Of a DNA stretch of 64,000 nucleotides, positions 1 through 38,700 are shown piece after piece. Every line of letters begins with the position of its first letter. Position 1 is the stretch's first letter. The notes below the pieces were generated by a model. That model ran no database searches, was not told where the DNA came from, and was given only the letters and a program-made list of their open reading frames with translations. Source of the stretch: Phoronis australis (taxonomy: Eukaryota; Animalia; Phoronida); contig NMRA01000047.1 of assembly GCA_002633005.1 (NCBI GenBank), forward strand, positions 374,913 through 438,912. Reading direction: 5' to 3'. A program made the position numbers and the translations under genes.

Positions 1-1272
1 CACCTTTAGTATTTTTACTCATAACGTAAAATTGCCGTGAGGAGTTGACAGGGACCTCAGGGGTTTCACACTCCACTGATTTATCCACAGTATTTTGAAA
101 ACGCTTTGCCCAGTCGCACATTGTGTGTCATAAAAGAGATAAGCATACCAGCAGCTGACGCAGCAAGTAAAACTACTCTCGTTTATCACATTGGTGTAGA
201 CTCACAGTTGATCTATGGTTTTCTGTAGACCCCAGACCGTCCCGAGTTGCACCACATACCAACTCGGGACGGTCTCTCACGACGATTAAGCGTTATGTAT
301 GAGGCCCATTTATATGTGAGGTGCTTTGTAGGTTCTGTACAACCCGAGGAAACTTGGGACATTTGGCCTAACAGATGGGGAATCAACAGAGCGTTTGTGG
401 TCCTATTTACGGCGATTCTCAAGAATAACGAAAGAGATGACTGCTTCTCACAGACAGGATGTTTTAGTAGATGCATTGATGTTTTATGGGGAACGCCTAA
501 GGTCTAGTTTTGGTAAGTCAGCAGGGTCTCATTTATGCGGATTAAGCACATTTTAGCATTCTCGGCACATAGGTGAGCCTTTGTCTGACAAAGAATATAT
601 TTGTTTAGTTTGAAGTTAATATTAAAATTAAAATGAATTTTCAAACATCATCAGTTGTTTACAATATAATACAAACCTTGTATTACTTATAAACTGGTAT
701 ATGTATTGTGTGGTGACTTTTATTGAACTCTGTCCTTGTGCGTCCACATATTTATGTGATTGTGCTCATTGTCGTCATCTCTGTCTGGGTGTCTGGCGTT
801 CGTAGCTGCATCTCCTACTTCCCTCACAGGATTGTAATGAAATTTTCCGACTGATCTCTGTGGTGCTATAGAGATCCAACAAGCGCTGTGCCTAGTGGCA
901 ATTTCATTTTTTCAGGTTCCATCTGTTTCTCTGAAGTTCCTTGGCAGTTTTTTATGAAATTTAAGAAATAGCTTTCTTTTTAAGAAACAACATCTTTTGC
1001 TTTTGGTTGGATTTGGCATATTTTGTGACATTTAGTGGCTATTTTATAATGCAAATGAGCACCCCTAGATGCTAAATGTTCGCTGAGCATTCTTAGGTGC
1101 ATTTCAATGCTCTGCGTTGCTTTTGTTAATAATATGGAATGTGCCCAATACTCTTTCTTTGATTTTTCTGAAACTTGTTCAATGAAAGTTTTTATTCATA
1201 TTCTAATAAAAGATCTACTATCTAATATTCATCTGTGTGCTTTAACTTTTGTACTCATTGCTTGTTTCTCAG

Positions 1273-3057
1273 GTAAGGGCTTGTCATCTAAACTGCAAAA
1301 GGCACAAGATACTCAAGCATTGTATGATTCAGAGCTGAGACAGTTGGCAAGTCTTGTACCAGGTACACCATTGCTTATCAGTTGTGGGTTTGTAAAAACT
1401 TAATTGTTTTTTATACACTTGGAAGTTTTTACTGTGTTTTCAGGTATGTATAAAATCTAATGCTGCATGTTTTATGGGCAATTGCCATCAGTGTTTCCCT
1501 TGTACAAGTTTAATAGTAAGAACGAGCTCAGAGAAGGAGACACCTCTCCAATGCTCAATTGTCAGCCATTAAAACCAAGATTCAAACCCATGTTTCCCAA
1601 ATGGGAGCCTAGAGCTCAAACCACTGGGCCGCACTGTCTAATCATTGAGAGTTGGTATCCTCATGCTCATAAATGTGTTAACAAATTTCTTCATTGAGTA
1701 ACGATTTTTCAGGAGGTGTCACTAGTGAACAAGCTGAGCAATGGCACGAAAATGCAAGGCAGTTCCATTTGAACAGTCATGGAACACGTTTAGGTATATA
1801 TTTTTAACAGTAAACCCCTACCTGAAAGCATCGTAACTTAAAAATCGTCTGTAATTTATCTTAAATTTTACTTAAAGCAAATTTGTATTGTGTTCCACAA
1901 AACTGAGATAATATCTATTCTTATCTTAACTTTAAAACAGCTCAATCTTATCTTAAGTTTGCCTTAACTAACTTAAGAATATGTGTTCTGCTTTTGCCAT
2001 CAAAGTGAAAAAGAAAGGTTACATTATAATTTTTGTTTAAAGGATTTAAGATGGCATGATAACTTGTACCTTAATGCATGTTATCTAGTGACTCACTTGG
2101 GGAAAAATACTGTTAGTGACATGACAATCATGCACACTGTGTTCAGAAAATTGTAAGATGTGATTTTATTATAATGATTAATAGAACTGTCAAAAGTTAA
2201 ATAACTTGTATTTTCACAATTCAGGTACAGAATCAAAACACAGTCGAATGTTGGTTGACATCCAAAAACTCTGTCACGAGAGGACATACCTTCTTTCACT
2301 TAAGAAAAAGTATGCTGGTAAGTATTATTTACACCACTTGTATATTCGCTCTTGTTTATGTTGACATTGTGTATCTTTTTATAACATTTTGGACACGTGA
2401 TTCGTTGTCATGTAATTGAACAAAAGCTCAAGTGCAAAATTAAGCTTCTATGACATGGTTCTTTCAGATGGCCAAACAATAGCAATGAGGTTGACCAAAC
2501 AATTGACTAAAACGATGAAGTGCCTGCGAAAGAGAATCTGTGACTACAATAACCTGGAGCAAGATGTGTCCGGAAAGTATCCCAAAAAAATTCAAGAAGA
2601 TACCGTTTTCAACCATGGCAACACTCTATGGGCTCTGATTAGTGATGAGACCTCTGTTTTAGGGGATGGGCTGCAGCAGTTGAAGGCTGATGTAGTGAAT
2701 GCACATCTGTACAAATTGCGTGCTACAGAAGAAATAATACTACTTAAGGATGAAATGAGGCGCGTGAAATACTTTTATGTTTTGGAACATGAGAAAGCAT
2801 TTGAAGAAGCCCAGCGGTATAAGAACCAAGGTGATGAAGCACAGGCATCTATGTGGTTGAACAAATGTATGAGGTTAGAGTTGAGATTGCAAACTCTTGC
2901 ACATCAGCTTAACGACAACAGTGGCCACCCCAGTATTTTGATTGATGCCATTGAAACTGTGATTGAAAGGTCAAAACTGAATATAGTAGACTGTGAAGAT
3001 GTACTTGAGAATGATGAAGAAGAATCAAGTGACAATAGTGGGGATGAGGATTGTTGA
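1273..3057 (+). CDS. C-terminal exons of a probable KDZ (Kyakuja-Dileera-Zisupton)-type transposase; 5'-partial
   Basis: Four phase-1-joined exons with canonical ag/gt: 1273-1362 (KGLSSKLQKAQDTQALYDSELRQLASLVP), 1713-1793 (GVTSEQAEQWHENARQFHLNSHGTRL), 2225-2317 (TESKHSRMLVDIQKLCHERTYLLSLKKKYA), 2468-3057 (DGQTIAMRLTKQLTK...KLRATEEIILLKDEMRR...acidic tail, TGA). The motifs KKYADGQxIAxRL and RAxEExxLLxxEM match my recollection of the helical C-terminus of animal KDZ-family proteins; no catalytic core is in the window. AATAAA at 3925-3930. Confidence 0.65.
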
Positions 3058-5180: not shown

Positions 5181-7867
5181 TGCACATACGTAGGCCTACT
5201 TTGTGACTCACGAGTGGCCATTTACATAGAGTCTGCATTGGCGGATCTGGTATGTCGGAGAAAGAGGGTCCCGAACCACACATTTTCGCAAAGCAGAGAT
5301 CCATGTGCATTCCAAGCGGTCTCTGAAGGGGCCCAAGCACAATTGTAACGCCCAGAAATTATTTGAAGGTGGACATTTTTAGTCGCCCGTCGGGTGTGTC
5401 CTCGGGGCCCTTCGCCACCCGTTCCCCTTTATCCACCTATGCTGGGACACCATAACTGTTTCTTTATCTTGAAACTATCTTGAAACATTGATAAAAAATT
5501 CCGTTTCTCGGTGAGCGTACATGTATGACTGGTGGTCGCGCGCCCAAATGTCTTCAGCGTAGCGCATTGATGCCGTAAGCATCGTATCGAGACCCCTACT
5601 CCTCACTATACCGTTACTTACGGTACTTAGACGTTACTTTAAAACGTAAAAAGGTGGTTGGCTGCAACTATGTGCGCTTATGCCCCACTATACCGTAACT
5701 GCGCCGATTCATAAATGGACTGCAATTGAATCCAGAGCTGTACGCATGCATGTGTAATAAAAGTGTAGAAGTTTCCCATTTCAGGCAGAGCGTGTAACGC
5801 AAGCTACAGGCTTTGGATAATGTTTCCATTCGTTTTGGACAATAAGGGAAGCTTTTAAATCATCACACTGCTTTGTAACATTTCACACGTTGTTCAAAGG
5901 TCTGCTAAAAATTATTGTCATCGCAAAAATTATGCGGCCACTTAACTCCAACTGACCAAGCATTTCACTCCCAGATGGTCACCTGACCACGGTTTTCTCA
6001 TCGACTAGGGCGGGTTTTTTCGTTTCTAACCATTCCATTAGTGTCTGGTTTATTTTTGAAGCCCGTTACCAAACGTACCAATTTTCCGATACTAACTTTT
6101 TCTAACATATTCTGATGTGAGGAAATAATCGAACACACATTTTTTTCTCTCGCTTTGTGCGATTTTCTATGCTTTTTGAACTAGAATCAGGCGACTCAGG
6201 ATTGCCGCTATTTTCTACTTCTGTAGTCTTAGTACTTTTCTCGCATGTGAGTAGACAAGATCGGTGATTGTGAAATGTCTTAACTATAAAGTATTAATTG
6301 ATTTCATTACTGATTATAGTTATTTAAACATTTAAACATTAAAATATAAGAACGAAGAAAAACATTTTCAACATTTATTTCCAAGTACATCTGAAGATCT
6401 TGAAAATCAGTGTACACCAATAATCACAAAAACAAAGACCTTCACTAAATAATCACATTTTTGCTAGAAAGTGAACCATATCCAAGTAATAACTATGGCT
6501 ACTCATGAACCATTTCAACCACCACGTTATTGTTTGTCAAAAAACGGTAGTACAAGACATAACATAGCTAATAAAACTGAGAGAAGTTGTTTGAGAAGAA
6601 TATTTATGATCAAGGTAACATTTACAATCTACACCAATATCAAATAGGCTACTACTTTGTACAAAACACATACCCTATTCGAAGATTACATGCAAACACC
6701 ATTCAGCACTTACAAATATGAATGAAGTCACATTTCATAGAAAAAAATGATCATTGTTTTAATCAGTTAAAAGGTCTATTACAGAATATAGTCTCATAGT
6801 ACAAACAATTTGTTGCATTCAGTTTTAAGCCAGGTGCATAATTGGGGCTTGGAGAAATCGCATAACATGAGCCAGAAAATCTGCACCAAATAATAATAAT
6901 GGATAAACATAAAACAGGGATTAGACACTTACCTATGACACCATGAACCAATTGTATTACATCAGGAAAAGTTCACTGATATTTTTCAAACCTACTTTTA
7001 TAGCCCTAACATTGGCAAGGTGTGTGTCAAAAGATGAAATTACCCAATTCTTCAATTTCTAAGAAGCCATGAAATATATATTGTTGGCACTTAAAATGTC
7101 ATGTCTTGTGTACCCACTCTGCAGTTGAAACTGGTACATCATCGAGATTTCTACAGTTTTAATAATTGGGAAATACAGTAGCTTATTTCAGGAAGCATAA
7201 TGGACAAAAATCGCCACCAGAAGACCTCACGATTGTCACACCCTTCCAAAAATCAATGCCTATTTGGCAAACTTCCTGGAAATCCACCGATGAACTTTGA
7301 AAACACAGAGGCAAACGTGAACATTTAAACTGCAATTAGAGGACACTGAGATACGCCAATGGGTCCAAAACTTGTCATAAAATTTTGTCACCTCTGAAGG
7401 TGCATGTTTGCCAAATTTCAGAAAGATCCTACAAAAAGTTAAGGATTGAGGAACAGAAATGCCAAATGTGGCGCCAAAGTACCGGAACCAGTTCGAATAC
7501 CAACGTCAGCCACGCGATTCTCATCAGAAAAACATGTGCCAACTTTAACAGTCCTCCAAATAGTTTTACAGAAAGGGAAACGCCAAAAAAGAAACGGTCT
7601 CAAAATTACAAAAACGTCCACTAAGGTGGCATAGAACCGTTGATTAGACGTCCGAAAATTCCGTCACCTTAACAGTAGAAACCTATCTGCCAAAATTTAA
7701 CAAAATCGATCTAAGAATTATGAAAATACAGAGGTAACTGAAAAAAATTCAAATTGCCACTATGAGGCACTGCAGTTAAGGAGATAGAACAGCAGATGGT
7801 TGGACAAACATGACAGTAATATGCACTCACATACAAGTACGTGGACTGGGGAAATAACAACAACAAC

Positions 7868-10800
7868 TTATGAAGACAAGTTTGGGAAATGAGACTCAAT
7901 AACATCTTTTAAGTTTTCATATGGCTCGAATGTCACTTCCCCAGTCTCCCACAGCACCTCTGCTTGTTTTTCGCCATCTTTAGTAATACGCATACTTAGA
8001 ACATCCTTTACAATCCAAAGTTTCTGCTTTTTTGGTTTCTTTTTTTGCTGGCGGGTTTTCTTTCGTTTCTTTTTTGAGTCTGTAACAGAATTTACAACAT
8101 CCATGAAAACACATAATTGTTGATTACTGAAGCAATAAAGTCAGAAAAAAATTAATGATCACCATTTGGTAACTGAGGTTGTCTCAATTCTAGAAAGCCA
8201 TTCAAACGAATGAGCTGTTGAGACATTCATTCAATGAAACCACATCCTGAATTCCATTTGTGGATAAACGAAAATTGGATTGTACAATTGACCGAGTTCT
8301 CAAAAGTCAGGGCCACTATCGCACACTTTTGAGCTTAGTCAGAATAATAAGCAGCTTTTAATTTTGTGTAGGCATGGCAATTTTGTGAGCAACAGTGAAA
8401 CATTGTTGACCTTTCAATGACTAGAAAAGAAGGAAAAAGATGAAGATGCACAGAATACATGGTAATTGGTCCATTTGAACAAATCACCAGAGCTAACACA
8501 CGACCAATGTTATTAATCAACAGGTTCTTTGAGAAAGAAATTTAAGATTAAGCATCACCTTTAACTTCCACCATGTGCACATCTCCTCTCTCCATCATCT
8601 TAAATATGTCCACTGTAAAAAAAAAAAAACATCACATGCTTAAGTACCAAAATTTAACAAAGCAGGTATTCCACCTATTCAATCTTTTATATAGTATATG
8701 AGTTATACTTGTTTGTCTTACTCCTCAAACTTTTTATTTAAAAATTATCAATTTTTCTTACATGTGTTAACACCAGTTTAGTGTTGCATAACTTTTCAAT
8801 TCAATAGGACTGCTGACACACAGTTGGCTCAAATCAAGTTGCCCATGACTTGATTAATGGCTTAGTGAACATAATGCACCCTGTTCACTGGCAGGAACGA
8901 CCACCCATAATTTGAGTTTTTTTCTGAAGACCACCACCCATGAATTTTTATTTCTACTGCCGTCCCCCCCCCTCCCACACGGATTTTACTGGAACAGCCC
9001 TAAGCACCACTGGCAACCCCAGATTTTATTACCAACCTGGCATTTTTAGTTTTGGCAACCTCTGAGGTTTTTGCCAAGCCACCCAATGGGACTTGGCATT
9101 AAGTTAAGTGAAATCCCAGGACACCGCATAAAGTCCAGGGTAGCTGATTCTGCATACAATTCGGCTGACAAAAAAAGACAAGGGGTAAGGTCGAACTATT
9201 GTAATGTGCCCCACAGTATATTACAAGTACCTCCCAAATTCTCCCAGTTAGTGTACATTCAGCTCAGGTAATTATTGTATGACTTTGATACTCGTATTGA
9301 CGACTTTGTGTCAACTTGGTCCCGAACACATTCTGAGGTCGCACATTCACTTGTTACCGTTGCTAGGGCAAAAAGTCAAAATAGATCTTCGTCTGGTAAA
9401 TTTGATTATTTGTTTCGCAGCCTATATCTATTTTAAAGAATAAAAAAATACATTTTTCATATCAATTTCTTTCAAACCTTAATAAAATCTTACTTAATAA
9501 GATTCTTATTAGTTTTCGACTTCAGATTAGGGTTTTCTGAGAACTGAGAAGTGAAAACTTACTCGCAGTTTCAACCTCTACAAGAGGTGTCTCACTCACA
9601 CGCTCAATTAGTGGATGTGATCGAACACCTTCTTGTGCATGTGGGACATCGTGCCAAGTCTGTTCCTCAACCACTGGATGCTCTTGTGCAACTTCTTGTG
9701 CATGTGGGACATCGTGCAAAGTCTGGTGCTCTTGAGTCTCCTCCTGTTGGAGTCTGTAAAGTTAAACCAGACAGCCTCAGAACATGGTGAATTGCTTCAA
9801 TATTCTTGAATAATTAACCTTTTTCAAACAACATTTCACAGGTTGCGTTGTATAGAAGCTCAAATATTCATTAAAAGCTCCCACCATGTGTAGTATACAA
9901 TGAAAGCCACTTACATACATTCAGCCATTTTGAAATTATAGTAAAATACTATTTCTGAAAAGGTCCATGTGCTTTAAGCTTGTGCAAGACCTTTAGAAGA
10001 ATTTTAGCCAACTTCAGAATATCATAAATGTACCTCAGTAGATGATGAACAGAATCTATGCCAGACACTATGTTATGTGCACTGTTATCCTAACCGCTGT
10101 GAAGAATTTTTTATAAAATGTTAAACTTTTGCATGACGGGCAATGAAAAGACAAGACTTGAACATTTATATCATACGAAATTTGGTCATGTAATTGACCC
10201 TGTTGTTTTGTTATGAATGTATGTTTCTTTTTTCTGGTAAATATGGTAAAAAGCATGGTCATGACAGTTTATGTCAGATTGGTATAAATTCAACAATTAA
10301 ATTCTACAGAATTTCCTCTTGCAGAGTTAACTTTTGTATACAGTATACTTTTGAAGACTGTAGGCTAAATGTAAACTTGTCAATGAGGCCCTACTTAGCC
10401 TTATAACAAACATGTTGAACAAACCCCGACCAAGTTAGATTTACTCATAGCTCTTAGTTAAACTATAAGCACATAATTGATAGTTATACCTCGTCACCCT
10501 AAGTACAAGTCCTGTCTTCTTGTGGAAATCTAGAATTTCCTTCAATCGGGTCAAGCTGTAGTAGTCTGGTTTTCTCAAAACTAAGCCTGGCATATTGGTT
10601 TCAACAACTATTTTGCCTTCCCTAACATTTTGGTAAGGTAGTCGTGAAGACTTTCCCACAGCAGTTGCTACAAAGAAAAATTTAACTGGTTTAAGCACAT
10701 ATTTTTAATGGAACAACACAGGAAATAGATTAACTCCACAACTAATATTTATTCGGCTAACCTAACACGTGTGCACCAGGGCCCAGGATTGCAGTCAAGT

Positions 10801-13800
10801 TTACATAACCATTTAAGTAAAAATATTCACCATAGTGTAAGCAAACATTTGATCTGGTGCAAATTTCCCCTAAGCTTACATGAAAATTAATTTTTTATGT
10901 TCATATAAAGCTAACTTTGTAAAATGAAGAATAGAGTGTACTTTTGAATGTCTTTTGATTGTTTAAACAAAAGTTTAATACTGCATCATTTAAAACCTTC
11001 TGAGGGTGTATATTTGTATCACAAAAATGGCCATCAGATGGCACGAAATTCATTAAACCCATTCGAAACTGGGAAAGTGTAGTCGTCTGATAATAGAGTA
11101 TGATCCCATATCCAAGTGACTTAGTGTAACTGCATGTGTATGAGTTGTTCAGAGAATTAAGCGTTATGTAATACATCCCCAAGTTAGTCATGAGGAATTG
11201 TAGTAAACATGTTTGTATGGTATATCCTGTTATTATTCATGTATGTAAGTGTATGATCACATGGATTGTAACAGATTCAGTAGTATCAGTAGAAGAGTAT
11301 GAAATAAAACTATATTATCCTCCATCAGACTAGTATTATCCTTGGACCGCGTTCTCGCACTGTGTCGTGCATTCAACCTTCCTAACCGAACATAATGCCT
11401 TTCACTGCTAGAACACCAACATCATCTCTCAAAGTTATTTGTCAAGTAGTATGTAAATTCCGTTAAAGAACTCCAAAGATGCAAAGGTAAATGGAAAAAA
11501 GCTGCCGTTAGGAGCAGACAGATACAGAAGCAAAACACAAAAAACAGTTGATGCACAAAACAGAAAGATCCTGGTGTCTTCAAAATAGAAAATTGTTTGG
11601 CCAATTTCATGAAAAACATCAAGAAACCGAAGTTAAGATGCAAAAGTAAAAAGAAAAAAGACACTATGGAGCACAACTGTAGTTAGATTTGTCTGAAATG
11701 GCATCATCAGTTGCTGTGTCCTGTTTAATTTCAGGAGGGTCTTGCTGCGGTTAAGGAGATACAGCCATGGACGCAAAAACTTGGGATGGCACTACGGAGG
11801 CCATAGAAGTTCAAGACGGAAAATAAATGTCAGTCTCAATCTTTTTATCAGGAACATTATCTCCAAATGATAACGGGAAGATAAATATGTGGGTACATAG
11901 ATGTGATGGGTGAGTTAGGAAACCAAAACAGTGGAACAGGATTTGTTATATAGAGCACAAATTGGACACTGAGGTTTATCGTTATTGATTCTCTCATTAA
12001 TTTACAGTGACGAAGCTTTTGCAATAATATATTTTAACTTACAGTACAGATCATTTAGCAGATGGCGCAACTCCACCCTCAAGTCTTTAATTTGCACCGC
12101 TGTCTGGTTACTTTGACTGCCTGTAAATTGAAACAAATATTATGACAAATTAATGTATCGTTATTTCTCTAGAAAAATTAAAGACTATTCTACTGAACAT
12201 TTCAAAATAGATTTACTTAAACATTTCTAAACCCACTTAAAGATGAAAAGAGTGGTTTAACAACTCACATTAGACGGTTCAATAGTGAGTGCACTTAAAA
12301 GTAGGACAAAGGGACTGCATTGGGACAATTTCCTAAATAATAAACACCAAACCTCAATAACAGTTAAATATCCATTTTGAGACAACAAAAAATGACATGA
12401 ACCTTATTAGCATTGTAATCCTTATCCTACGCTAGCCGAGGTCAACCCACATGCCAATTAACATATTACAAATTGCCTTGGGTTTACTCAATGGACTATC
12501 ATAAGCTGCACCTGGGCTGCGCCAGGAGAGTGCACTCACCCCAGGAGACAAGTGATTTTCATTCAGAAATTGGGAGACCTATGGAATGTTGTTAAGATAT
12601 GTGAGCATACACATTCTATAGTTCACAGTTTCTGATTTAAAACATAAGGCTGTGTTTACTAGTTTGGGAGATGTTGGCAGGTTTATGTAAATATAGACAC
12701 ATAGTTCCATTATATGGCTGAAGCCAGACAGGACCTGGATGACAGTGGATCAGTTAACTTTCACTAGGGCTATGATGGAGATTTACATATGGTGAAAATC
12801 TCCATTAAATTCTGAACAACTTTTATGTCGGCTCCTTTTCTGTGAAATTTAAACATTTCCTCTTCAAATTTCCAATTTAAAATTCTTAGGTCATTAGTCT
12901 GGGTGAACTTCATAACAACTCAGTGTACAGCAGTAGTGGTGACCTACAGTACAGCCACTGAATTATTAGACTTCATCCGGGCTACCTCACGCCTAGCCAG
13001 ACCGGAGCTTAACCGGAGACAGACCAGAGAGTGAGGCGTGAATCAACCGTGACAGCTGGCGTGAGCCTAAGCGTGACTGTACCCGGAGCTTACCTTAAGT
13101 TAGGCGTGAACGAAGCGCGAGCCCGCCTTGAGCCAGGCGTGAGTTTCACTGCCTTGTCTAGAGTTGGAACAGTGTTTAATTGTTATCCTCACTCGTTTAG
13201 CGAACAAAATACTGTATCGTATTTTGAGTGGCATTTCTCATCGCTAGAATCATCTTAACTAGTACGCTATTCAAGTTGACTAGGACATTATTTAAGATTT
13301 AATTTAGGTTTGTCCGGACACACTACCAAGAGGGTCTATTTGTCTTGAACAAGTATATTACGACTAAATATATCGGCATTGTTTCGTTCAAGTTAGTGCT
13401 TGCAATTTAATATTAATTTCGCGACTAAGGAAGTGTTTGTGTTATGAGTGTGTACGTATGCTAGCAATGGAGGCAAAATGTACAGCACTGAAAGTGACAC
13501 GAATACGTGTTTAGATAATATCTTATTATAATGAGTAGCTTTGCATTTAGATAAACACCGTAGGCCTAGTGGAGCTATGAAATATGAACAAGAAGCCCAG
13601 ATCATCTAACAAACGGCAGTAAAATGCGAGCATGCATGCATGCAGAAAAGAGTAGTGCGAAGACTATCAATTAAATAATAATACCACTACTGCTACTACT
13701 AATGATATTACAGGTTAAAGAAATACTGATTGTAACTATAATAGTAAGTATACTAGTAAGAACTACAGTATCAACTTTATTGCAGACACACAAGTACATG

Positions 13801-16800
13801 TACATTGTAGGCATACAAAAAGCAGGGAAGGCGGGACGAAAGCGTGAGGTAAGCGTTAACTAAACCGGAGGTAAGCGTGAGGTAAGCGTTAACTAAACCG
13901 GAGGTAAGCGTGAGGGCTACCCAGAGAGTAAGCGTGAGGGCTACCCGGAGAGTAAGCGTGAGATGACCGTGACTGATTTCTGTCACACCTGCGTGAGGTA
14001 GCCCGGACGAAGTTTAATAATTCAGTGGCTGTACTGTACTTAGCTCTGCACACAGGGAAAGTAGTCTGAATAGTCAGCAGGATAAGGCCGGGGTTAAAAA
14101 ATACAACTTGCATACAACAAGCTGTGATTCACTCACCTTTTGTTGCATGCAAATAGAAATCTGTCATCATGACATTGTCAAAGAAAGATGCCAGTGCTGC
14201 CTTTCCAAAGCTGTTCACCTTATCGGCAGAAGAGTCCCACACAAGACCAGCTATATTAACTCCAAATTTTGACAAGTCTTCAACCTGAAATTAAAAAAAT
14301 TTTCTCAATATTTTTCTTATTTATTTTTTGTTCATGACTGATTATAATTAATAGGATTGGTATAATGCAGACAGGACTAGATTCTCATAAAATTCAAGTT
14401 CTTGTTCATGATTAAGAATACAAGTTAGTACAAAATAAATACTCAAACTCACTGTTCGGGTAAAAATCTGCATAAGCTTGTTCTTTGAGCGTGGGGATGG
14501 AGTGACAGAGGATTTTTCTTTGTACTTAATTTTCTCATCCATGGAAAGTTTTTTCCATTCTTCCCCCCACTGTTTGAACTTTCCAGCCCCAACTTCAGCA
14601 CCTGTTGATCAAATATGAAACTGATAAAATAATGCATTATGAATAAATACACCAGCCTTCCAGTTTCATTAAGTGCCCTTCATCTTGTGTATTTGCCATT
14701 GTGTGGTGTAGCAGTGTTAGCAGAGTATTGTGTAGAGAGAGAACTTAAAGTCACCCTAACAAGTGCGAGTTGCTTAACGAATAAAAGCTGTTATGTCTTA
14801 TTTACCAACAAGATAACAAGAATATGTTCATTTTAGTAAAGAAAGGCATATATGAAATTCAAGGTGTAATTCAGAAGCAAATTGGACAAAAAGGATCTAA
14901 GTATAGCACTCACCCTTTTCATGACAGAATTGGTTGTATCCACTTTTCCCTTTCAGATAAAGCGTTTTCCGCCTTTCATATGTTTTTCCCATAATTTTTT
15001 TTCTGTAGTTGTTGACCCATGTCTGAAAAGTAGAATCAAAACTTTCAGACTTACTGACATAAATCCAAATGCAAACAAAACAACTAGATAACAAATCCAA
15101 GCGTGAAAATATAAAATCTATATTGTGGTTGAAATTTATTCAAATTCTTAAAGACATTAGAACAATCACAGCGGCTCTAACAAATTAATAATATACTCTT
15201 TGAACAGCATAACTCAACTGGGGTTACATTTAATAGCTAGTTTTCATTTTACCTCATAATCCCATTGATATACTTGACTAGGTTTGAACATGTGCCCTTT
15301 GGGCACACCTGATGATACAAAGTATGCCCTTTTTAAAAAGGGTGTGCCCAGCAGACATAATGTAATTAAGGTGGCACAATATGAATCAGAAATCCCAAGA
15401 GCAACCAAAATAACAGCCACGTTTTCACCTGACCTGCTATTCGTTGACTAGAATCTTGGCATTTTTGAAACAGCGCTGTGTTTAAAAGGAGGGGCCGTGG
15501 TGGGAAGGGGGTGTGCACTGCTGCAACGTACATGTGCTCTAATGGTGCAGTCCAGAATATCCCTGTAATCCATGTTCTGTTTCATCTTCATTTAACTACA
15601 CTGTACAAACCCAGAAAGGTGTTTTAGGCTATGCTAAAGACTTGTACCCTCACAATTAACCAGGAATGAAAAAACAAATTATAATTAACATGAGAGCAAC
15701 ACATGGCAATGATATGTTCCCACCGAGTGTGGATCGCAAATGGCAAAATCCTAAAGGTGCTAATTATCTAAACATTCTCAAACACGCAATATGCAGCAGT
15801 CAGAAAAATGACCATTAATGAATTAGACATGAATTGAGCTAGACAAATCAGAGCACAATTGCCATTAGGTGGCAGCTGCAGCACTTAAATCAGCCAAAAA
15901 AGGATGCCAGCAGTGCTCCTCTAGTAATAACTGAAACATCCGCCACGTTTCAAAATGATGCTTCATATGGATAGAGAAGCAGATGTCACCATGACACCTT
16001 GATAGACACATAGACCTACGAATTTGCATGATCCTACGAGCGGTTTGGTAGATACAGGAGGCAGATGCCAGACACAGAGATGACTGTAGTATATGCCGGG
16101 CTAATATATGCAGGTGCATGTAAATGCATGTTACTGTTTCATCATTTCAGTTAGCATTGTCAACTTTCTAGATATGTCTAATTTTGGTCTTGCTACAAGT
16201 TTTGAGCTCAACACTATACTGTACCTTGACTCGTCTCTCGGAGCAACCCAATTTCTTGGCAGTTTCCTTGACTTCTGCAGAATTCTCTTTTCTCATCCCT
16301 TGTTCCCAAGCTGACTGTAAGATGAGTACTTCACTATTTGAGAAGTTTATCTGAAATTAATCAATCAAAGTGCACAAAGGTTGTCCATTAAACAGACTGC
16401 AACCACTACTAAGACACAGAACAAAAATCTATCAATCTGAACCATGAGACTAAAATTCGAAGAAACTAACAGGAACTTTGGAAATAAAAATGAGATTTTC
16501 AGACTCAAATCCACATTTGAAAACACAAAAAACTAATGACAAGAAATGGGCTCCGAATATGTTCAAATCAAAGGGTGTCTTATGTATTTGGTCCCTGAGC
16601 TTTTGTAACATGTCATTTAATTATTGTTTACTGAAACAAAATAAGACGATAAAACCAAAACGAATAACAGGAGCCAGTTTTCACTCACTAATGGCCATTG
16701 CTGCTATACAAGTGCAAACTCTTCCCAGCAGCCACTTTGGTTTCTTGTATATATGCATTTGTAGCCAAAATTCACCTGTAACCAAGTTGGTGGTTTGGGG

Positions 16801-18803
16801 TAGCAATGGATGGTGAAAATTGATTGATGTCGAACCTAAGACCTGCCAACACTTGGATGACAGTATTAATAATAATAGACAAAACCAAATGAGGTACCAG
16901 ATGACTAAAGCTTTGGAGTTATGGAGGGACGCACCTATCAGACTATTACCAATACATTGTTCCCACGTCTGTGAAATCAAATTCTCTCATCGGGTAATTA
17001 TCAATCATTAAGCCAATGACATTCTCTTCAAAGTCTATTTTGAACATCATACACAAATAGCATGTGATCTGGGCATGCCATCTTGCTTAGTGAGCTGCAT
17101 GACGTGTGGGGCATCAAATTAATAGTGACTGGGAGAGAGGATGCCAAATTGGGAGAGTGCAAATGGTGAGCAGTGGAGCGGTAAAAGTAGAGTACACTGC
17201 CCCCCCCCCTCCCCTCTTCCGGTGAATCATATTTATAAGCATCTGTTAGCTACTCGCTAACGGGCAATTGCCTATTAGCTGAATGGTTAGCACACTCGTC
17301 GGTTTTATAGGGGTCGCTGGTTTGATTCCCAGGTAGGGTAATCTTGGCTATTGTTTACTCCAAGAATGCCACATTGACTGCCAAATCCAGCTTTCAATGA
17401 ATAATGGACATTGCCCGTTACTCGACTTTTATCTACAACGCTTAATTTTTTGTTTGAATGCGGTATTTAGGGAGGATGTTTTTTACTTTTTTTTTGCAAT
17501 ACCCATGTGTCATACATTTTTGAAAAGCCCTTGGTGTGAGCAATGAAATGGTGCAAAAATCAGGAAAAATTGGGTGAGCGGTTACCGAGAAAATGACCGT
17601 TGAAACGCAACAATTATGCATAAAATATCTGCCTTCTTACATAATTTCGTAAAAAATAAAAGAATATACATGTGCTGCAAATAAAAATTGAGACAAACAT
17701 GGTGGTGTGTATTATATATTTGTATTTGGATCGATTTCTACAGAGATATTGCTGTTTAAATGTGTTGTTTAATTAGCATATGGAACAGGCTCATCATGAA
17801 CCTCATGTTTAATGAAAACAATGGATTGCACAGCTTTAAAGGTAAAGAGCAAAAAAACAACATATCAGCTCAGAAATAAATACATCTGAGCTAGGAAGAA
17901 ATTTCACATCAAACCACAAAACAACATTGGTTGATTTTGGGAGAGGCAAGGCCCCCCCCCCCCCCCTAAAAACTCCCAGATTTCATTTGGCAGTGTGAGG
18001 GTGCAAATATCTTACAGGTGAAATCCTGCGTAATACTCTGCCCTTCCCCCCATCTAAAAATCCTAGATCTGCCCCTGAATACTACTACATGGGCAACACA
18101 TCATGGCCCGACAGGGGGCTGTGGAAGGCTATAGCACCCCCAATTTTTCAGAGCTGGGTGCCACCCATGTACTATTAGATCGTATCATAGCAAAAAAAAC
18201 ATCAGAAAGTAGACAAAAGACCATGATTTGGGAAAACAAATCACTCTTAACATGAACGATTTCATCATTTACGCAACAAAAACTCTTTGTAACAACTTTA
18301 TTTCGAACGGTGAGTTACCATGCCCGAACTTCAACGTAGCCGCTCGTGGCGTCGACGTGCGACGACTTAGTGAACTAACGACTGCTGTTTGAAAAGTGCC
18401 AATTGGCGCAGCAGTTTGACAGAATTTCAGAAAACATTTCGTAAACATGATTCATGGCTTCGCATGAATGATTCGTAGGTTCGTAGATGATTCTAAGTTC
18501 CTGCACTTCTGGAAGGATTTTCTAATGGACATGATAACATTTAACAAATCAGACAAATACGTTTTATTAAAATAATACATCATAATTCTTTTCAAAATCT
18601 CTACGGAATGTAGAAGTCAAAATGGCGCAATCAGACGACAAAAAGATGGCGAAAAGCGAACGTCTGGCGATGGATCGTCCGATTCAGTTCATCATTACAG
18701 TAGTTTAACGATGTAATTAGGCCGGTGAAAAGTAAAAAATAGTGCTAAGTGTGAAAGTTCAACTCACCCTGACTCTTTTCCTGCATCTCTCACGAGGCTC
18801 CAT
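7868..18803 (-). CDS. 426-aa multidomain chromatin protein: HDX-like homeodomain + HMG box + GTF2I-repeat-like domain + chromodomain (10 exons)
   Basis: Exons (minus): 18803-18768, 16350-16225, 15022-14914, 14601-14453, 14284-14137, 12120-12043, 10667-10490, 9753-9563, 8612-8559, 8079-7868. All introns GT-AG and phase-compatible; 1281 nt, no internal stop. Homeodomain RKRVRINFSNSEVLILQSAWEQGM...AKKLGCSERRVKTWVNNYRKK; HMG KSGYNQFCHEK...WGEEWKKLSMDEKIKYKEKS; I-repeat-like LRVELRHLLNDLYSTAVGKSSRLPY...GLVLRKPDYYSLTRLKEIL; chromo LWIVKDVLSMRITKDGEKQAEVLWETGEVTFEPYENL. Possible polyA signal at 6379-6374. Confidence 0.85.
12947..14036. mobile_element. Non-autonomous Tc1/mariner-pogo-type element (about 1.09 kb) in an intron of the homeo-HMG-chromo gene
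   Basis: Imperfect TIRs of about 45 bp: CAGTACAGCCACTGAATTATTAGACTTCATCCGGGCTACCTCACGC ... GCGTGAGGTAGCCCGGACGAAGTTTAATAATTCAGTGGCTGTACTG, with TA on both flanks; subterminal AGCGTGAG/ACCGGAG repeats. Confidence 0.85.
17258..17420 (+). mobile_element. Degenerate tRNA-like sequence bracketed by 11-bp inverted repeats
   Basis: TAACGGGCAAT (17258) ... TAGCTGAATGG (A-box-like) ... GGTTTGATTCC (B-box-like) ... ATTGCCCGTTA (17410-17420). Confidence 0.45.
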
Positions 18804-21800
18804 ATCTGTTTTCGCTGTAATAATTTCCGCGGTGGTAGAAGCAAGATTTCAAGAGCGCGCGTGGTGAAAGTGAAGCTCTCGTTGATCTCGCGAGATAGTT
18901 TTACGCAACCGTTACCCATTGTTCATTTGAACCGGCGACTCCTGATTAAAGGCCCAAGGCGTATATTTCAAAGAACTCGAACTGGAAATTTCGATACAGG
19001 AACATTTTCTTCACAAATCAATACAACATTCACAGTCTATGCCAGCACAGGTATGAATTTATATCAGGTACGGTTTTGATTTCATTTCCTATTCAACCCC
19101 ACAATCGTTGGAGCTTATAATGGGGTTTTATGCAGAAAAATACGAAAGCTTTTGTAACGTTAGGCTGAAAGATCAAGTGGTTGAAGCAGTAACTGTACCT
19201 GCTAGAGCGTTAGCAGTGCGTACTGGACACTCTTTCAGAGCGTAACTGCGCACAACTTTTTTTTGGTTTGAGCAAGTAACTGCGTAAGGAACGGGTGTCT
19301 ATTTTGGGGAAATTGCTTTTTGTTTACCGTTGATAAAAATTGCCCAATTGAGCATTTCGCTTAGTTGTACACTGTGTTAATAGTCGTATCGACATGGTTC
19401 ACAATTTTTAAATTGAGATTGTGGTTTTTTTCAAATCACATGAACATAAACATATTTTTGATCGAAATAGATGTTTTGGAAGACCCGGCAATTCATGCTG
19501 CAGTGTGAGTCCTGAAAGGCACATTATCGTTGTTTTTACGTCAGTAGAATCTACTGATTACATTTTGGTATTGTTGAGTAGGATAGACTTTTTGACCAGA
19601 GCTGTAAAACTTTGAAATCAGTGGTGTCGATATTGGTACAAATCGCCAATTCTCGCCTTTGTTTGAAGGTAATTTTCACCAGTTAAGTACATTTAATGTG
19701 CATGCGCTATTTTTCAATTGGGGTTTAGCTTTGCCAGCAGAGCGTTTACTACGAACGCGAAGGTTCAGTCCAGGTTCGAATTAGCCACACTAGTAGGTAG
19801 GTTGTGAGGGTATATTATTATTCTCGCTGGGGCTAATCTCGGAAAGAGTACTTTTTTCGCCGATATAGACATTTTTAGCAGAATCATGCAGTCTCAATGC
19901 TTATTACTAACATCGAGACGCTTATGACCATGAATCATTTCAGACAAGTACATGTCACAAGGAAATCAAACTTTATCTCGTCAGCGCAGCTGTGTTTTGG
20001 CTTGATGTCGTTTAGAGTACCCTATGACATATCATCACGCATCGTGTTGTGTGCGGAATCGTACGCGCTTTATCAGAGTGAACGTTTTCACATTACATAA
20101 GGGTCAGTGTGCTTCACACTAACCTAAGATTCGGGATTAAATTCCACTCCAACAAGCTGAACTCGGTCCATTCGAGGATTTCTCCGAAAGTTTAACAAGT
20201 AAGTCACGTTGATACTACCATTACCACTCGATCTTACTTCTACCATTATTCATGATTATCAATGCGACTGTTATTGTTATTATCATTTTATTATTATTAT
20301 TCTTGTTGTTGTTATTATTATTATTATTATTATTAGTGGTAATATATACTACTCTAACTACTTCTACTACTACTTCTAATATTACCATGAGTATGCAACT
20401 GTCAGTTACCCTGTGGTAGCACTACGTTATGTTGTTATTGACATGCCTTTTATCAGTATTAGTACACAAAAATTATTTTGCAATTCCAACTTGTTTCCAA
20501 GGCGGACGTCATCACGGAGTTTTCTAGAAATAAATTGTACTTGTGGCTTAGAAATATTCTTCTTTTTGACCTCAGTTTGGTTATAATGGTTGTCGTCATA
20601 ACAGTACTTATCACAGCCTAGTCATGTCAAAACTTGATAATAACAGGGACTTTCATTAAGAATGCGTTTGTTTCTCAAAAAAATCTGCTGAGGTTCAACA
20701 AAAACTGTTTCATGCGGTCGCGTTGCCCACTGAGCGGGAACGCTGCACCACAAGCCATCACCCAGCCGATTATGCTGGTCGCGCGATGAAGAACGCTGCT
20801 ATGCCATTCATTAGCGCAGGGTGACGTCCTCTTGTTAATTGTACATCTCATTATCTAGAGCACTAAAGTTGAATATTTAATAAGCTTGGTAAATACGCTA
20901 CGTGTATTGATCTAACGTGAACAAAGGAACTTCAGGCGTGTTTGTGAGAAGTAGCGTCTCCGTTGTCTGCTTTTGTCGCACACCATGTGTTTTTCAAGGT
21001 AACAACGTCGATTTTATATCAGTCTTTGTCACGTACCTTACCGATATCTTGAAATACTTTGACTAGCGCAAGGTTGCATGTACTGGCATCATCTACAGAC
21101 TGTGATAAATTTTGCCGCAGTCTATCAAATCCTGGCTGAATATCCACCAGACTTACAGCTAGGACACTCCATTTGAGGGTCATAGACGATTGGGATAGAC
21201 TTTTTGAAGTTAATAGCTTTGACCAGAGCTATAAACAATAAAGACGTTGCATTTTGTAATTTCATTACAAATCTCCAATGTCGTCAACGTTGTCTGCCAG
21301 ACAACTTTTAAGGCCAGTGTCTTTTCGTTACGATGAAAATACTCTGTTAGGATTTGGCTCAGGGGCATAGCGTTCGAATGCTCCTGCATAGTTAATGGAC
21401 TTTTTTCCCGTTAATGTCTCTTAAAAATACTACCGTCGGTTACACTGGCGAACCTAACAACATTCACCTTGGACCTTGTGCGTGTTGTAGGTATGTAGCA
21501 GTGGCTGCGTTTGGGGTCGAAACTATTTACTATTTAACTGTCCCTCAGTAGTACAAAATCTAACGCTAATGTTTCTTGCTAATTGCTGTCTAAATCACTA
21601 ATTTCCAACTAATTTGCTTATCCATTCAAGATATATCAAACAGTTTTCTTACGACCATAAAAATCATTTCACTCTCAAATGTATCCTTTATGGCTTCAAC
21701 AAACAACAAGAGTGTCAAAATCCACCATCACTTTCGACTACAGGCTAAGGTCTTTATAAAATTGAGCCGCTTCACTTGACTAGATTGTGCGCTCTCAATT

Positions 21801-32766: not shown

Positions 32767-35700
32767 TTATTGAATATTTCTCTCACCCTCGATGCCTCCA
32801 CCAGGGCATGCTTCTATTGCCCCAGCAATGTCAGATGGTCGTTTGTCAGACACCTCCCTAGCAATGTCATCATCACCACTGGGTACTAAATTACCAGTCA
32901 CCTCACTGCTGTCTGGCACAGCTGTCTGACAACTAGCCTCTAATGATACGAGAGATCCTCGACTCTGTGATACCTCACATTGCTTTGCATTGTGTAAACT
33001 GGCAGACATCTCCCTCCTTTGGTTGTCATACGATAATGGAGTAGCCAACTCCTCTGGACTCTCAATTTGCGATAAATTAGAAGTTGTCTCCCCTGGTCTC
33101 TCGATTTGAGATGAATTAAAAGTTGTCTTGTCTGATCTCGCGTTGTGTAAGAAATTAGTAGTCGTCTCCCCTGATTGTAATTGGCCAGCTTTTTTTACAG
33201 GGATTCCTATCAGTTTGTGGGTCAGAGGGATTTTCTTGGAAGACTTCTTGGGCTTTTTCTGCAAGAAATCATGTAAAGCTTGAAAGATACAAACTGAAAT
33301 TCTGGTGAGCCCAAATTATGAAAGAGACAAACATTGCCCTCACGCACTGTCACTGAAATAAAATAAAATAAAATAAAAAAAAATTGGCCAATTTTTCTAG
33401 TTGGAAAAGTTTACAAAAAAATCTAATGCCCAATTTGCTAATGATGCTTATTCTCATCCCACATTCCACCATGAATTTGCCGTCATTGCAATACTACAGG
33501 TTCAACAAAGTCGCCGTAAATTGGTACATAACTCGCCGTGCACCGTAACATGCAAAATACCATGTTTTACTTTTGTCTGGCCAGAAGTCCATGGTAAGAA
33601 CAAAATAGTAAACCAACTTACTTTGGGCATGGGCCTGTTAGGGTCATGGAGTTTTCTGTGGTTGTTAAGTTTTTGCTGTAATAAACCAAAATTCATCAGA
33701 ATTCCTCAAATCCGTTATTTTAAGACTTGAGCATAAAACAAACATCTCAAAAACACATCATTTCAGTTCCTCTTTTTTGTAGCGCATGAAATAAACTATT
33801 TTGACATAATTAAGACAAATGTCACATGTATCAGCTACAAATACAGGTCAAATACTACAATAGCTATCGTGCAGTGTAACACACAACTCACTTCTCCTAT
33901 ACCTAAATTCCATAAGACACCGTCACGCAACCTAAACAATAACAGATTAAATGAAAACTTTCACAAAACCAATACCTACAGTTTTCTAGAAATTCGGCAA
34001 AATGCACAGACTTTTTAATTAGGTCTTATGTAACCTCAGATCAGTTTTATTACAGTACCCACAAATGTCATAGATCCAAAGCTAATTTAAAGCCATTCTC
34101 AAACCGTAAGCATGATTACCATTCCAAAGCTCAAACGAGACTTGAACATAACATATCATACAATCATGTAAATCTTGCCTGGCTAGCCCGGATGCTGGTG
34201 TTAAGTTGCACTTGCTCAATTCATCACGTGACTTACAAACGATTCAACAGCGGAACATAAGAAATCAGGGAAGTATGAAAGATCATGGATCTGGTAAGAT
34301 GGTAAAAATAGTCAACGGCAAATGATCACTTTGAAGTAACTTAGCACCTGTCTTTCTTTGTATACTGTGAGTGCATGATCTATACCATATTTAGACTGCT
34401 AGTAGCGTGTCTTTACACAGTATTTTAACTATATTATAAAATCATGCATCGGAAATTTGCTTTCAACTGGCTACTTTGGTTTGCGAACTTTGTTTTCCGC
34501 TAGCAAGTGGAATGTAAACAATCACCCTCACTGTTCAAGTCTCATCAGAGAAATTAATGTTCATTTTTAAGAATCGCTTATTCTTGTTAATAAAATATTT
34601 TTTAAAAAATGTCAAACTGACAAAAGGTGGATTAAGAGCTGCTTTAATAACCACATAATTACGAACAATTTCAAAGAACTGTGTGTCAGCCATTACCTAA
34701 GGTACGATAATTTCATCTACAACTGGGTGCACAACCTTTTAAAAAACAGGCCCTAGAAGTATACCTTATTCACAAATGTCCTATCACACTGTTCACACTT
34801 CAGCCTGTGTCCCAGGTGGTAAGATTTCACGTGAGCCGTCAGGTTCCGTTGACAATAGTAGACACGTGGACAGCCCTCGTATGTACAGTGGAAGATAATA
34901 CGCTCCTCGCTGTGAATCACAGAGTGCTGCTTCAACCAAGCCTTAGTGGCAAATGACTTGCCGCAGAGTTCACACGTGAACGCTGAAATGTAGGTCAAAG
35001 GTGAATGACGAAATGTATGTAATGTGATTTGAATGAGTGAAACACAGATCACCGCTACTGTACACAACAGATTAGACAAGTGTAATGTAACTTATCCGTA
35101 ACAAGATAAGACCTTGATACGATCATTTTAACACCAACAATCAAACTGGCTGGACCCAACATTAGATGAATGACTATAGTTCAAAATTTTTAATATTTCA
35201 TACATCATAATGTATGATCTGGGTACAAAAAATCCCCAAAGACGCGTCCTTGCATTTCCAACAATATTTGTGAGAAATTTAATCGAGACCACGCCTAAAA
35301 AAGCCCGATTTTCGTGCACAGCATCAATGCACTAAACCCAAGCACACGACTTCCAAGAACAACATTTTGGTACACATGTCTGACCTTACCTGTTCTATGG
35401 TCCACAGCCACATGTTTTCTAAATAATGACCACTTGTCAAAGACCTTGCCACAACCCTCTTGCGAGCATGTAAACCCTGTGGGATAGAATGACTAATAGT
35501 CAAAATGTTTGTACGATCAACTGCTTTAATAAAAATCCCCAAAGCCTTTCGTCCCAAAAACTGGCAAAGTAGCAAAGAACATTTTTGCTGACTCCTGGAC
35601 TCTCGAATTAACTCAATCTCACTCCTCTCTTTGTCTAAGATGCAAATTCCTCCGAATAATTTTGTCAAGGTTAAGCAATAATAGTGACCTATCAACAGTC

Positions 35701-38700
35701 CGATTTCTTACAAATAGCCTGGTTTTCACATTCATCTTGGACCCATCTTTGAAGAACTGAGCAGGAATTCTTGATCATATGACCATCAAAAGTTGACCTC
35801 TGGTGAGTGATTAGGTTCCCAATAGTGGTCGCGTGAGAAGCTCTCGAATATGGCAGGAACTTCAAAGCCACCATCTATGTTGTGACCAATTCCAAGAATG
35901 ACTTTCTATAGCTTGTCTACTCAAGAGAAATTAGGCTGCTGATAGGAGGCTATCATTGCTCATTGTTGTGACAGTGACAGTAACATGACCTCATGCCACA
36001 GACTGTCAAAGTTCTCGTCCTCTCAAAATTGTCTTTCAGATGTTTTGATTTATTTCCATTTCTGAGTCAAGCCCAGGCTACCAAATTTTGCCTATTTTGA
36101 AAAATACCCAATCATGAAGTCAGTCACTAAGTCACGGTTGAATTTCAAAGATGGCTTTTAATAGGGAGGGGTCATCTGTAAAAAATAATATGGAGAAACA
36201 ACCAGCAATCATTACGATTGTAGTTTTAACAACTATACCTAGATTTCTTTGTTACATTTTTGAATGAGATGTTAGAGACATTTCCTTACAAAATAACAGT
36301 TTGATATAACCATCATTTACATATGTGCGTGTCAAAACCAATCAAGGAAAATGACCCAGAATACTCCATCATCACGGCTGAGCACAAGCGGAATTCTCTG
36401 TTATGACTGCTGAGAGCAAGCAGTAAATATAGAATTCACCATTGTTGTAGCACGAATGACCCATCTTGACAAATAATATGTAATGGAGGGTAATAGACAT
36501 TTTGTCCTCTACCATTGGTATGAACACTGAGGCAAACCAAATACAGCTACACTAGCTCAAAAAGATATTTAGTTAAATGACAAGGTTATTTACAAATACA
36601 TTAAACGTGATCAGCCACAGGAATCTACTGACCTTCGTGAGTTTTATTGTGCCGTTTCAACTTAGAGCGGACACTGAATGACTTATCGCAGCCTTGGTGA
36701 GTACACTTGAACAGTTTCTCATCGGTGTGTTCTGCTCTGTGACACTTGAACAGAGTGTGCTTCTTGAACACCTGTTCACAGCCATCAACTGGACACTGAC
36801 AAGAGTGAAGAAAGTAAACAAGTGCGAACACATGAATAGACTTTTATGCAGGTACATATGCATGAGTCAATTTCATAAATACACTTGATGACTTTAACAA
36901 AAATCCTGCAGAGCCTTTAGGAGATAGAGCCATGGGCGCAAAAAAACTGCCACTAGGAGGCGCCACAGTAGTCAGTCGTTAGAAAATCGTCAGCCGTTCT
37001 CTTCACAGTATGTGCCAATTTTCACAATCATCCTTAGAGTGGTCTGGTTGATAGAGGGGCGAATGCCAAAAAAAAAAGATTCTTAAACAGTACAAATGGC
37101 CACCAGGTGACACAAAATATCTTGAATCTGTCTGAAAATGGGCAGACAGTGTCATCTCTCATTTAACAAGTAATAAAGAAACTTGATTTATTTCAGTGGT
37201 CCTAATGCCACATTTTCCACATCTCTGTCACAAGCCAGAAATACAAAAGAATCCGATAAGAACCCCCATGTTGGGCGAGGCTCTTTTGGAAATTTCCGGT
37301 GAATCGAAACATTGACCGTGAACCTTCTTGCATCTATTTTGCTATTCAACACAAGGTACCTTATACAGTTTTCCATGAAATCTGTGACGATGCTTTAAAA
37401 GGCAGTCACGGCTGCTAAATGTCTTAGTGCAACCATCCATTTCACACCTGTAATACAAGTTCACCAGTGTAAATTTCCCAACTCATGTGGGGTACAGAGG
37501 TTACACTGTGAAGCGTGAATATTTTTCCAAAAATTGTCTGATGGTAGCTCAAGGAAAGGGCTAGAACACTGAAAACTATCAATTCAGTGGTACATACCTT
37601 TTGTGAACAAATTAAATTTCACCAGTCTAGCACACTACAATGGTGAGATTGTATTGGATTTTGGCCGTCTTCAGTTGACTGGTGTTTAGATAGGAAGCTA
37701 AAGTTTACGTCCATTATTACGGCAGACCATGGATTAACTGCTGAACAAACGCTGCTGAACTCATTTTCACTGCAGCTTCTGAACCAATCAACAGATTGAA
37801 TCAAGTGAGCCTTGCCAATTTTTTTTCCATTCAATTTTAAACGGTAAAATTTCAACATAACCCCTATCCCACTCAGCGAGTACCAGAGACATCTTCAGTA
37901 TTGATAAACGAAAATGAAATCCACCCACGACTAATATACACCCAAGTCAATACTGGAGGTATCATTGGTAACTCACCTCAGTTCATGAATTCAACATGAA
38001 CTTGGAAAATACTCCTTGAAACTTTAAACAGAATAGGCTAGGTAAGCGTAGCATAACTCACCTGATTTTATTTTCCATTGGTTCGTCATCCTCAGAGATG
38101 CCATGAGTTGCTAAGTGACGGTTGAGGTGGGCCGGACGGGTGTATGACCTTGAGCAGCCTTCGTGAGGACATAAATAAGGTCTCTGGAATGTAACACTAC
38201 ATGTGGGTACTTGCCACATGCGACAGTGAGCATGAAACAATTTAAACCCAATGTAAGATATTGAATGAAGCTTTACTTGACTAGAAAATAAACACACGAA
38301 ACATTCAAATCTAACAATGAAACCCCGGATTAGCTTCTGTTTTGAGACGACAAGAAATTTCGTCCCCCACGACCTTACCAAGGAGTTGGCCAGTGCAACA
38401 TTGATACCACCGTGTTCTTCCCACATGTTTTCAAACTTGACGTTACACCATGTTTGAAAGGCTCTGAACCATGCTTGGTAATCTTCATCCATGCTTGAAA
38501 AGCTCTGAGCCATTTTAACAATTTTCAGCCATGGTTGAAAAATATCTTTTTCCAATTACAAGACATTCTGGTGCATTTGCATACAGTAGTTTTCAAAATA
38601 AACGAGACAGGCTTTGACAGAACTCTGTCAAACTTGAACAAACATCTTGCTAGAATTATTTGGCAGTTACGCTAAACTTTGTGATTAAAATGGTGTTCTT

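Follow-up and report, generated by a model that had tools for sequence, protein, structure and literature searches.

A spliced I-repeat gene facing a KDZ transposase in Phoronis australis and its likeness to the vertebrate TFII-I family

An I-repeat gene and a KDZ transposase tail to tail

The window analysed here is a stretch of 64,000 nucleotides (nt) of the phoronid Phoronis australis (assembly GCA_002633005.1, contig NMRA01000047.1, positions 374,913 to 438,912 of the forward strand), intron-rich, eukaryotic DNA with about 38% GC. Near its left end a KDZ transposase gene on the plus strand and a minus-strand gene, hereafter the companion gene, lie tail to tail, the gene ends being 3.3 kb apart with other repeats between them. 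The companion gene has ten exons (numbered 1-5 and 7-11) running from 18803 to 7868; their borders are canonical, and together they form an open frame of 426 codons, which encodes, in this order, a homeodomain, an HMG box, a likely counterpart of the TFII-I dimerisation domain, a TFII-I-type I-repeat and a chromo-like end (Table 1). Its 3' untranslated region (UTR) extends to about 6400, as judged from RNA depth and contigs. Homologous genes face the transposase in multi-copy KDZ elements, as described in the next section.

A first-pass annotation, made from the letters of the sequence, had placed a GTF2I-like I-repeat at 10490..12120. The I-repeat is real, however, it does not lie in one open reading frame: the annotated peptide is encoded by two exons of the minus strand, 12120-12043 (exon 7, 78 nt) and 10667-10490 (exon 8, 178 nt), which have AG/GT borders and are separated by a phase-1 intron. 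Four sequencing runs (X1-X4, X1 being RNA by guess) were aligned to the region, about one fifth of each 2026 run having been read. The joint 10667/12043 (CT..AC on the plus strand) was found in one X1 contig and two X4 reads, and was absent from X2 and X3, neither of which held near-identical reads on these exons.

Searched against the Pfam model that the same annotation had named, GTF2I (PF02946), exon 8 alone matches at E=2.7e-4 and 21.7 bits (model positions 18-70 of 75; curated cut-off 27). Among 177,635 PDB sequences, all five matches of exon 8 at E<=10 are repeats of the TFII-I family, the best of them at E=0.063. Against a vertebrate-only profile built from 37 repeats of six vertebrate proteins, the spliced I-repeat scores 24.8 bits over positions 1-76, while the maximum of 2000 shuffles was 8.1 and the next-best segment of the window 7.3; by this profile a single I-repeat is present in the gene model and across all six frames of the window. 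The I-repeat is 20-26% identical to 13 vertebrate repeats. As in the vertebrate repeats (PF02946; 2EJE, 2DZR, 2D9B, 2DN5, 2E3L), the A-x-G, PY, P and L-x-x-I positions are kept; 10 of the 22 columns conserved in vertebrates are identical and most of the remaining ones conservative, with GLP reading NMP, so the fit to the I-repeat pattern that had first been noticed is there in a looser form. An exhaustive search of 1.84 billion representative proteins gave eight matches, four of which are vertebrate GTF2I or GTF2IRD1; the other four were rejected as unrelated repetitive proteins whose scores are summed over repeats, and no invertebrate relative or close orthologue was returned among these representatives. 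A word-based protein search with exon 8 gave no match (weak evidence by the nature of that search), the ESM Atlas gave no usable match, and two AlphaFold2 runs on exon 8 alone (58 residues) were of low confidence, with a mean predicted local distance difference test (pLDDT) of 51 and 46. Judged by its sequence, the product of exons 7 and 8 is a genuine, diverged TFII-I-type I-repeat, an identity upheld by the profile tests and by the intron positions shared with its relatives.

The transposase has an open frame of 344 codons in the window, its 5' part extending beyond the left border; this frame aligns with the C-termini of P0046, P0048 and P0049 and lacks about 74 residues in comparison with three full-length relatives. 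The CxC1/CxC2 domains, cysteine clusters that precede the catalytic domain, are present in these full-length relatives, the corresponding part of the window copy lying to the left of the window. Its closest named relatives (seven matches, 60-67% identical) come from a crinoid, a sea star and two amphioxus species. The exon joints of the transposase were not seen in RNA, and a word-based protein search with its last exon gave no match, weak evidence again by the nature of the search.

The joints 1-2, 2-3, 7-8, 8-9, 9-10, 10-11 and 9-11 of the companion gene were seen in RNA. By exon, the Pfam scores of Homeodomain, HMG_box and Chromo are all under their cut-offs. Exon 3 has no Pfam match to Homeodomain or HMG_box, and we take it to hold homeodomain helix 3 and the first HMG half on the strength of its motifs; exon 11 has three PDB matches, none of them a chromodomain. 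The coding differences seen in RNA alter the residue in six of six cases in X4 and in one of two in X1 (neutral expectation 79%) and so, the numbers being small, give no sign of constraint on the gene. At 18897, at a TCTCGCGAGA palindrome, 34 X4 reads depart from the window with a loose part that is absent from it; the copy that is expressed may differ there in its upstream flank or exon. At 14583-14671, reads of X2 (16) and X3 (25) jump back 89 nt, as if from a related copy in which a tandem duplication spans the acceptor of exon 4. Farther right in the window, the minus strand bears exons with C2H2 zinc fingers (34753-38555) that look like those of a TFIIIA-type host gene, and 46806-48537 holds a DNA transposon resembling a miniature inverted-repeat transposable element (MITE), with inverted ends that match perfectly over 26 nt and with subterminal GGGCGGTTAA repeats. 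No Rfam family was found in positions 1-25,000.

Table 1. Exons and other features of the two facing genes and the candidate element end (positions in the window).
Feature	Position	Strand	Evidence
KDZ transposase, catalytic exon	332..512	+	Pfam PF18758, E=7.2e-10, 39.4 bits (cut-off 26.6)
KDZ transposase, four more exons to the stop (1273-1362, 1713-1793, 2225-2317, 2468-3057)	1273..3057	+	AG/GT borders
Exon 11: basic stretch, chromo-like domain, stop	7868..8079	-	Pfam Chromo, E=0.027
Exon 10: 54-nt cassette, included or skipped	8559..8612	-	9563/8612, 4 reads; 8559/8079, 6 reads; 9563/8079, X1 contig
Exon 9: acidic linker, 63-nt internal duplication (repeat D18)	9563..9753	-	joint from exon 8, X1 contig
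Exon 8: remainder of I-repeat	10490..10667	-	Pfam, PDB, profile, RNA joint
Exon 7: first helix of I-repeat	12043..12120	-	RNA joint, frame, profile
Alternative upstream exon (at least this length) spliced to exon 7 in X1	12403..12450	-	stops in I-repeat frame
MITE-like insertion in intron 5, 48-nt inverted ends (I7)	12945..14038		repeat scan; reads join 12944 to 14037
Exon 5 (148 nt, phase 0 to 1): likely counterpart of TFII-I N-terminal dimerisation domain	14137..14284	-	length, phases and place compared with L009 exon
Exon 4: second HMG-box half, 149 nt	14453..14601	-	Pfam HMG_box, E=0.0036
Exon 3: homeodomain helix 3 and first HMG-box half	14914..15022	-	joint from exon 2, 3 X4 reads
Exon 2: homeodomain helices 1-2, GM motif (HDX-like type)	16225..16350	-	Pfam Homeodomain, E=0.036
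Exon 1: ATG and basic N-terminal arm of homeodomain	18768..18803	-	frame; joint to exon 2, 36 X4 reads
Candidate right end of KDZ element	19189..19297	-	CACCCGTTCC at 19297-19288, inward; three GTAACTG copies just inside

Companion genes and ends of related KDZ elements

Related KDZ loci were collected in a metagenome scan, in which 174 stretches were confirmed and 80 loci kept; 39 loci of at least 9 kb form the long-locus set (eight multi-copy families and three singletons). A second scan of viral contigs and a phage collection came back empty, and L001, from viral contigs, was discarded as a phage terminase falsely matched to KDZ. The middle exon of the companion gene was found at 20 bits or more in 21 of the 80 loci, and in all 21 it faces the transposase. 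It is present in 10 of the 11 long-flank groups, five of which, outside the training of the profile, score 28.8-75.7 bits (reversed control 9.2). With the vertebrate-only repeat profile an I-repeat exon was detected in L006, L008 and L009 (18.8-18.9 bits, reversed control 9.2). These three are copies 98-99% identical to one another, stand on different contigs and start at the same sharp left end; in each the I-repeat exon lies inside the shared span and faces the transposase. The link to a transposon proposed in the first-pass annotation is thus supported: a KDZ transposase faces the gene, and related KDZ elements bear a homologous facing gene, in one family with an I-repeat.

The window gene has the layout of these companions: it faces the transposase and consists of homeodomain, HMG box and N-domain exons followed by a variable tail. 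In the L009 companion an HMG half-exon is followed by exons of 148 and 81 nt and by the repeat exon; from the HMG half to the repeat the window exons are 149, 148, 78 and 178 nt long, and their phases match those of L009 until the end of the repeat, where the intron is in phase 2 in the window and in phase 1 in L009. The intron inside the repeat has the same residue and phase in both. Common to the window gene and the KDZ companions are a phase-0 intron following the homeodomain exon, phase-1 introns within the HMG box and within the I-repeat, and the 148-nt exon running from phase 0 to 1. A collinear alignment of the window and L009 companions from HMG box to I-repeat scores 96 (null 29±4, 0/2000). 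Profiles made from companions only pick exon 2 as the top window segment for the homeodomain, narrowly (8.8 vs 8.7 bits), and exon 4 for the HMG box (10.5 vs 7.6 bits); the corresponding N-domain profile does not pick exon 5 in the window.

Near the right end of the element (L055, L038 and others) the companions start with a homeodomain exon that bears a GM motif; in L055 and L038 this exon adjoins the right terminal repeat, and at L055:14200-15170 (minus strand) it is present threefold in tandem beside this repeat. In the other families examined, the companion tails consist of low-complexity repeats, an Ulp1-like protease and a PHD finger, and lack an I-repeat; the regular companion gene thus has the I-repeat as an optional module, and the C-terminal modules (I-repeat, chromo-like domain, Ulp1-like protease with PHD) are exchangeable between families. 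Searched in the ESM Atlas, the repeat exon L009:16451-16609 (minus strand) gave hits at 0.91, mostly to fungal clusters, one of which has PF02946 on 11% of its members; the I-repeat may be widespread outside animals, which we take as a lead only. To the right of a KDZ family H copy, L062:16000-20159 (minus strand) holds exons of another transposase-like gene, presumably Plavaka/CACTA-like.

Several KDZ families start sharply with CACCCG, beyond which the flanks differ; right ends carry this sequence in inverted orientation, and a 7-bp target-site duplication (TSD) was found at L056. In the window, CACCCGTTCC at 19297 has one mismatch to the CACCCGNTTC termini of related elements and lies 494 nt upstream of the start codon of the companion gene. 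With a 10-nt terminus matrix this end ties first among 127,960 positions. Three of the 15 copies of GTAACTG in the window (a motif chosen after the fact) lie at 19189, 19242 and 19276, within 94 nt. The motif at 19297 is suggestive of the right end of the element. The position of exon 1 so close inside it resembles that of the homeodomain exon beside the right terminal repeat in L055 and L038, which speaks for reading transposase and companion as one element. Two other proposals were rejected: an element from 5416 to 19297 without transposase has no TSD, and position 5416 falls within 538 nt that are skipped by reads; the breakpoint between L007 and L018 does not mark the end of an element, because a homeodomain exon of L018 lies beyond it. 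A 15-16 nt motif at 19298-19312, just outside the candidate end, matches the point of divergence of these two loci (L007:17163-17181; L018:17843-17861), with three matches among the 80 loci and the window and none in 3 Mb of simulated DNA.

Likeness to the vertebrate TFII-I family and to other transposons

The resemblance to GTF2I, GTF2IRD1 and GTF2IRD2 includes the full-length profile match and the phase-1 intron after the first helix of the repeat. P0021, a 71-residue fragment clustered with bird GTF2I, starts and ends at the two repeat-intron sites of the window, with 60 whole codons between them; judging from this protein alone, the repeat introns would be shared with bird GTF2I, including the phase-2 intron at the end of the last strand. 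TFII-I has an N-terminal dimerisation domain (PMC4055408, PMC8155576). A segment of L009 aligns with this domain ungapped over 52 residues (0, 1, 16 and 0 of 2000 shuffles for four vertebrate proteins), and a profile-profile comparison of 16 companion exons with five vertebrate N-domain stretches gave 4/100; in a local profile search the L009 segment scored no higher than controls. By size, phase and place, exon 5, ahead of the repeat, is the likely counterpart of this domain. Vertebrate TFII-I has six I-repeats (PMC8155576), and 6-7 were counted in the vertebrate proteins scanned, whereas the window gene has one, fused to a homeodomain, an HMG box and a chromo-like domain; Pfam scans of four vertebrate proteins detected none of these three fusion partners. 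The window gene is a relative, not a member, of the vertebrate family.

A joint profile of companion homeodomain exons (window exon 2, L055:14892-15047, L038, L035, L056 and L018 included) has as its best PDB match 2DA4 (DKFZp686K21156; E=0.018), which we take to be the homeodomain of vertebrate HDX; the GM motif after helix 1 is shared with the companions, the score is weak, and window exon 2 alone does not retrieve 2DA4. Given this match, the HDX homeobox of vertebrates may have been domesticated from the same companion in a second event.

Iyer et al. are said to have noted an HMG gene beside fungal KDZ transposases. The companion proteins, of homeodomain-HMG-N-domain type, differ as accessory products of animal-type KDZ elements from the TET/JBP dioxygenases of fungal ones. 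Large KDZ elements with accessory genes are reported from fungi and brown algae in PMC12730594 and PMC12477816 (the giant KDZ of Ectocarpus). The former (Kojima 2025) describes fungal Kyakuja elements as having 7-bp TSDs, CA..TG ends and no terminal inverted repeats. The elements compared here are like Kyakuja in their KDZ transposase, in starting with CA and, at L056, in the 7-bp TSD, and are unlike Kojima's Kyakuja in that they bear terminal inverted repeats (CACCCG...).

A putative helper of transposition and competing explanations

We consider, with a probability of roughly 0.6, that the I-repeat gene is a KDZ companion whose product serves as a DNA- and chromatin-binding helper of transposition. 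In Harbinger and CACTA elements a second gene serves the transposase, the one of CACTA elements encoding the DNA-binding protein TnpA. By analogy, a second, non-catalytic gene made of DNA-binding modules that travels with the KDZ transposase would likely have a helper role; the transposase superfamily and the domains are different. Harbinger is described in PMC12730594 as having a Myb/SANT partner protein. One element would span from the left of the window to about 19,297, with this copy of the gene inside it; the homeodomain and the I-repeat would attach to short repeats of the element ends, whose DNA the HMG box would bend, the TFII-I-like N-domain would dimerise and thereby pair the ends, and the chromo-like domain would read a methylated histone and steer insertion.

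Several observations weigh against parts of this proposal. The I-repeat is found in only three of the 80 KDZ loci, all of one family (1 of 11 groups), and a single assembly supplies 37 of the 39 long loci. Exon 5 of the window is not significant against TFII-I N-termini or the companion profile. The candidate end ranks 8th with a 12-nt and 10th with a 20-nt matrix, the same 10-mer recurs once, at 5416, and neither the left end nor the TSD of the element was found within the window. The joints 3-4, 4-5 and 5-7 were not seen in the RNA runs, X1 splices a stop-bearing upstream exon to exon 7, and 23 X4 reads pass directly from exon 2 to exon 10, meeting a stop at codon 60, compared to three with the 2-3 joint; for these reasons production of the full protein is still putative. 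This main X4 isoform (16225 to 8612, minus strand) omits exons 3-9 and so loses the recognition helix of the homeodomain. It could be the product of a splicing switch that holds the helper off in most tissue, or of decay.

That the window copy is decaying or splice-silenced, so that the four-module protein is rarely or never made, is a serious possibility, if somewhat short of an even chance, and is compatible with the helper proposal: the dominant skip, an X1 isoform unable to encode the whole repeat from an ATG, the MITE in intron 5 and the shortened transposase point in this direction, while the ten canonically bordered exons in one open frame do not, and the RNA was sampled in part, with germ-line tissue possibly differing. 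The main competitor of the helper proposal is that KDZ elements carry the companion as an anti-silencing or transcription factor with no part in cutting and pasting, which we regard as unlikely, though far from negligible. Fungal KDZ TET/JBP dioxygenases are thought to counter methylation silencing (PMC12730594), vertebrate TFII-I is a transcription regulator (PMC8155576), and the Ulp1-like protease and PHD tails of other companions speak for chromatin functions; that homeodomain, HMG half and N-domain are common to the families while the chromatin modules vary, and that short direct repeats lie just inside the candidate end, argues for the helper, although these two points separate the roles poorly.

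It is less likely still that the gene is a host gene, an invertebrate TFII-I relative never or no longer mobile, beside which a KDZ transposase lies by chance in repeat-rich DNA. Such a gene would be expected to be spliced and transcribed from its own promoter region with a long 3' UTR, as this one is, and the distance between the gene ends, the repeats in it and the candidate status of the element borders are in keeping with it; the facing arrangement in every one of the 21 related loci bearing the middle exon, the failure of the exhaustive and word-based searches to return a close orthologue, and coding differences without sign of constraint (in small numbers) are not. Very improbable, finally, is a resemblance to the I-repeat by chance or convergence. 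The sub-threshold Pfam score of exon 8, its PDB E-value of 0.063, the low-confidence AlphaFold2 models and the ESM Atlas result would allow it, but the full-length profile match is far beyond 2000 shuffles, the TFII-I family accounts for 5/5 PDB and 4/8 library matches, and the repeat intron lies at the same residue and phase in L009 and, as far as P0021 indicates, in a bird GTF2I repeat.

The vertebrate TFII-I family may itself be a domesticated KDZ companion, a scenario to which we give slightly less than even odds: the N-domain and the I-repeat, with their introns, would come from the transposon, the homeodomain and HMG box would have been lost and the two-exon repeat multiplied. The idea in the first-pass annotation of a transposon reservoir for this fold fits the data, with the qualifications that descent could run either way, from transposon to vertebrate or the reverse, and that the I-repeat occurs in one of 11 companion groups. 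A search of open full-text literature, without supplements, returned no link between I-repeats and KDZ and no invertebrate I-repeats, though Repbase and InterPro taxonomies, outside its scope, may list such genes; the literature found does not address where the I-repeat and the Williams-syndrome factors GTF2I and GTF2IRD1 come from. As carriers of such a gene, KDZ transposons would be a possible source of the vertebrate TFII-I family, and a transposon gene with the same domain pair and intron layout is a concrete candidate for its ancestor. The protein has one repeat and candidate natural binding sites in the element ends, so the original function of the I-repeat becomes testable, and the companion adds a regular second gene to the animal-type KDZ elements.

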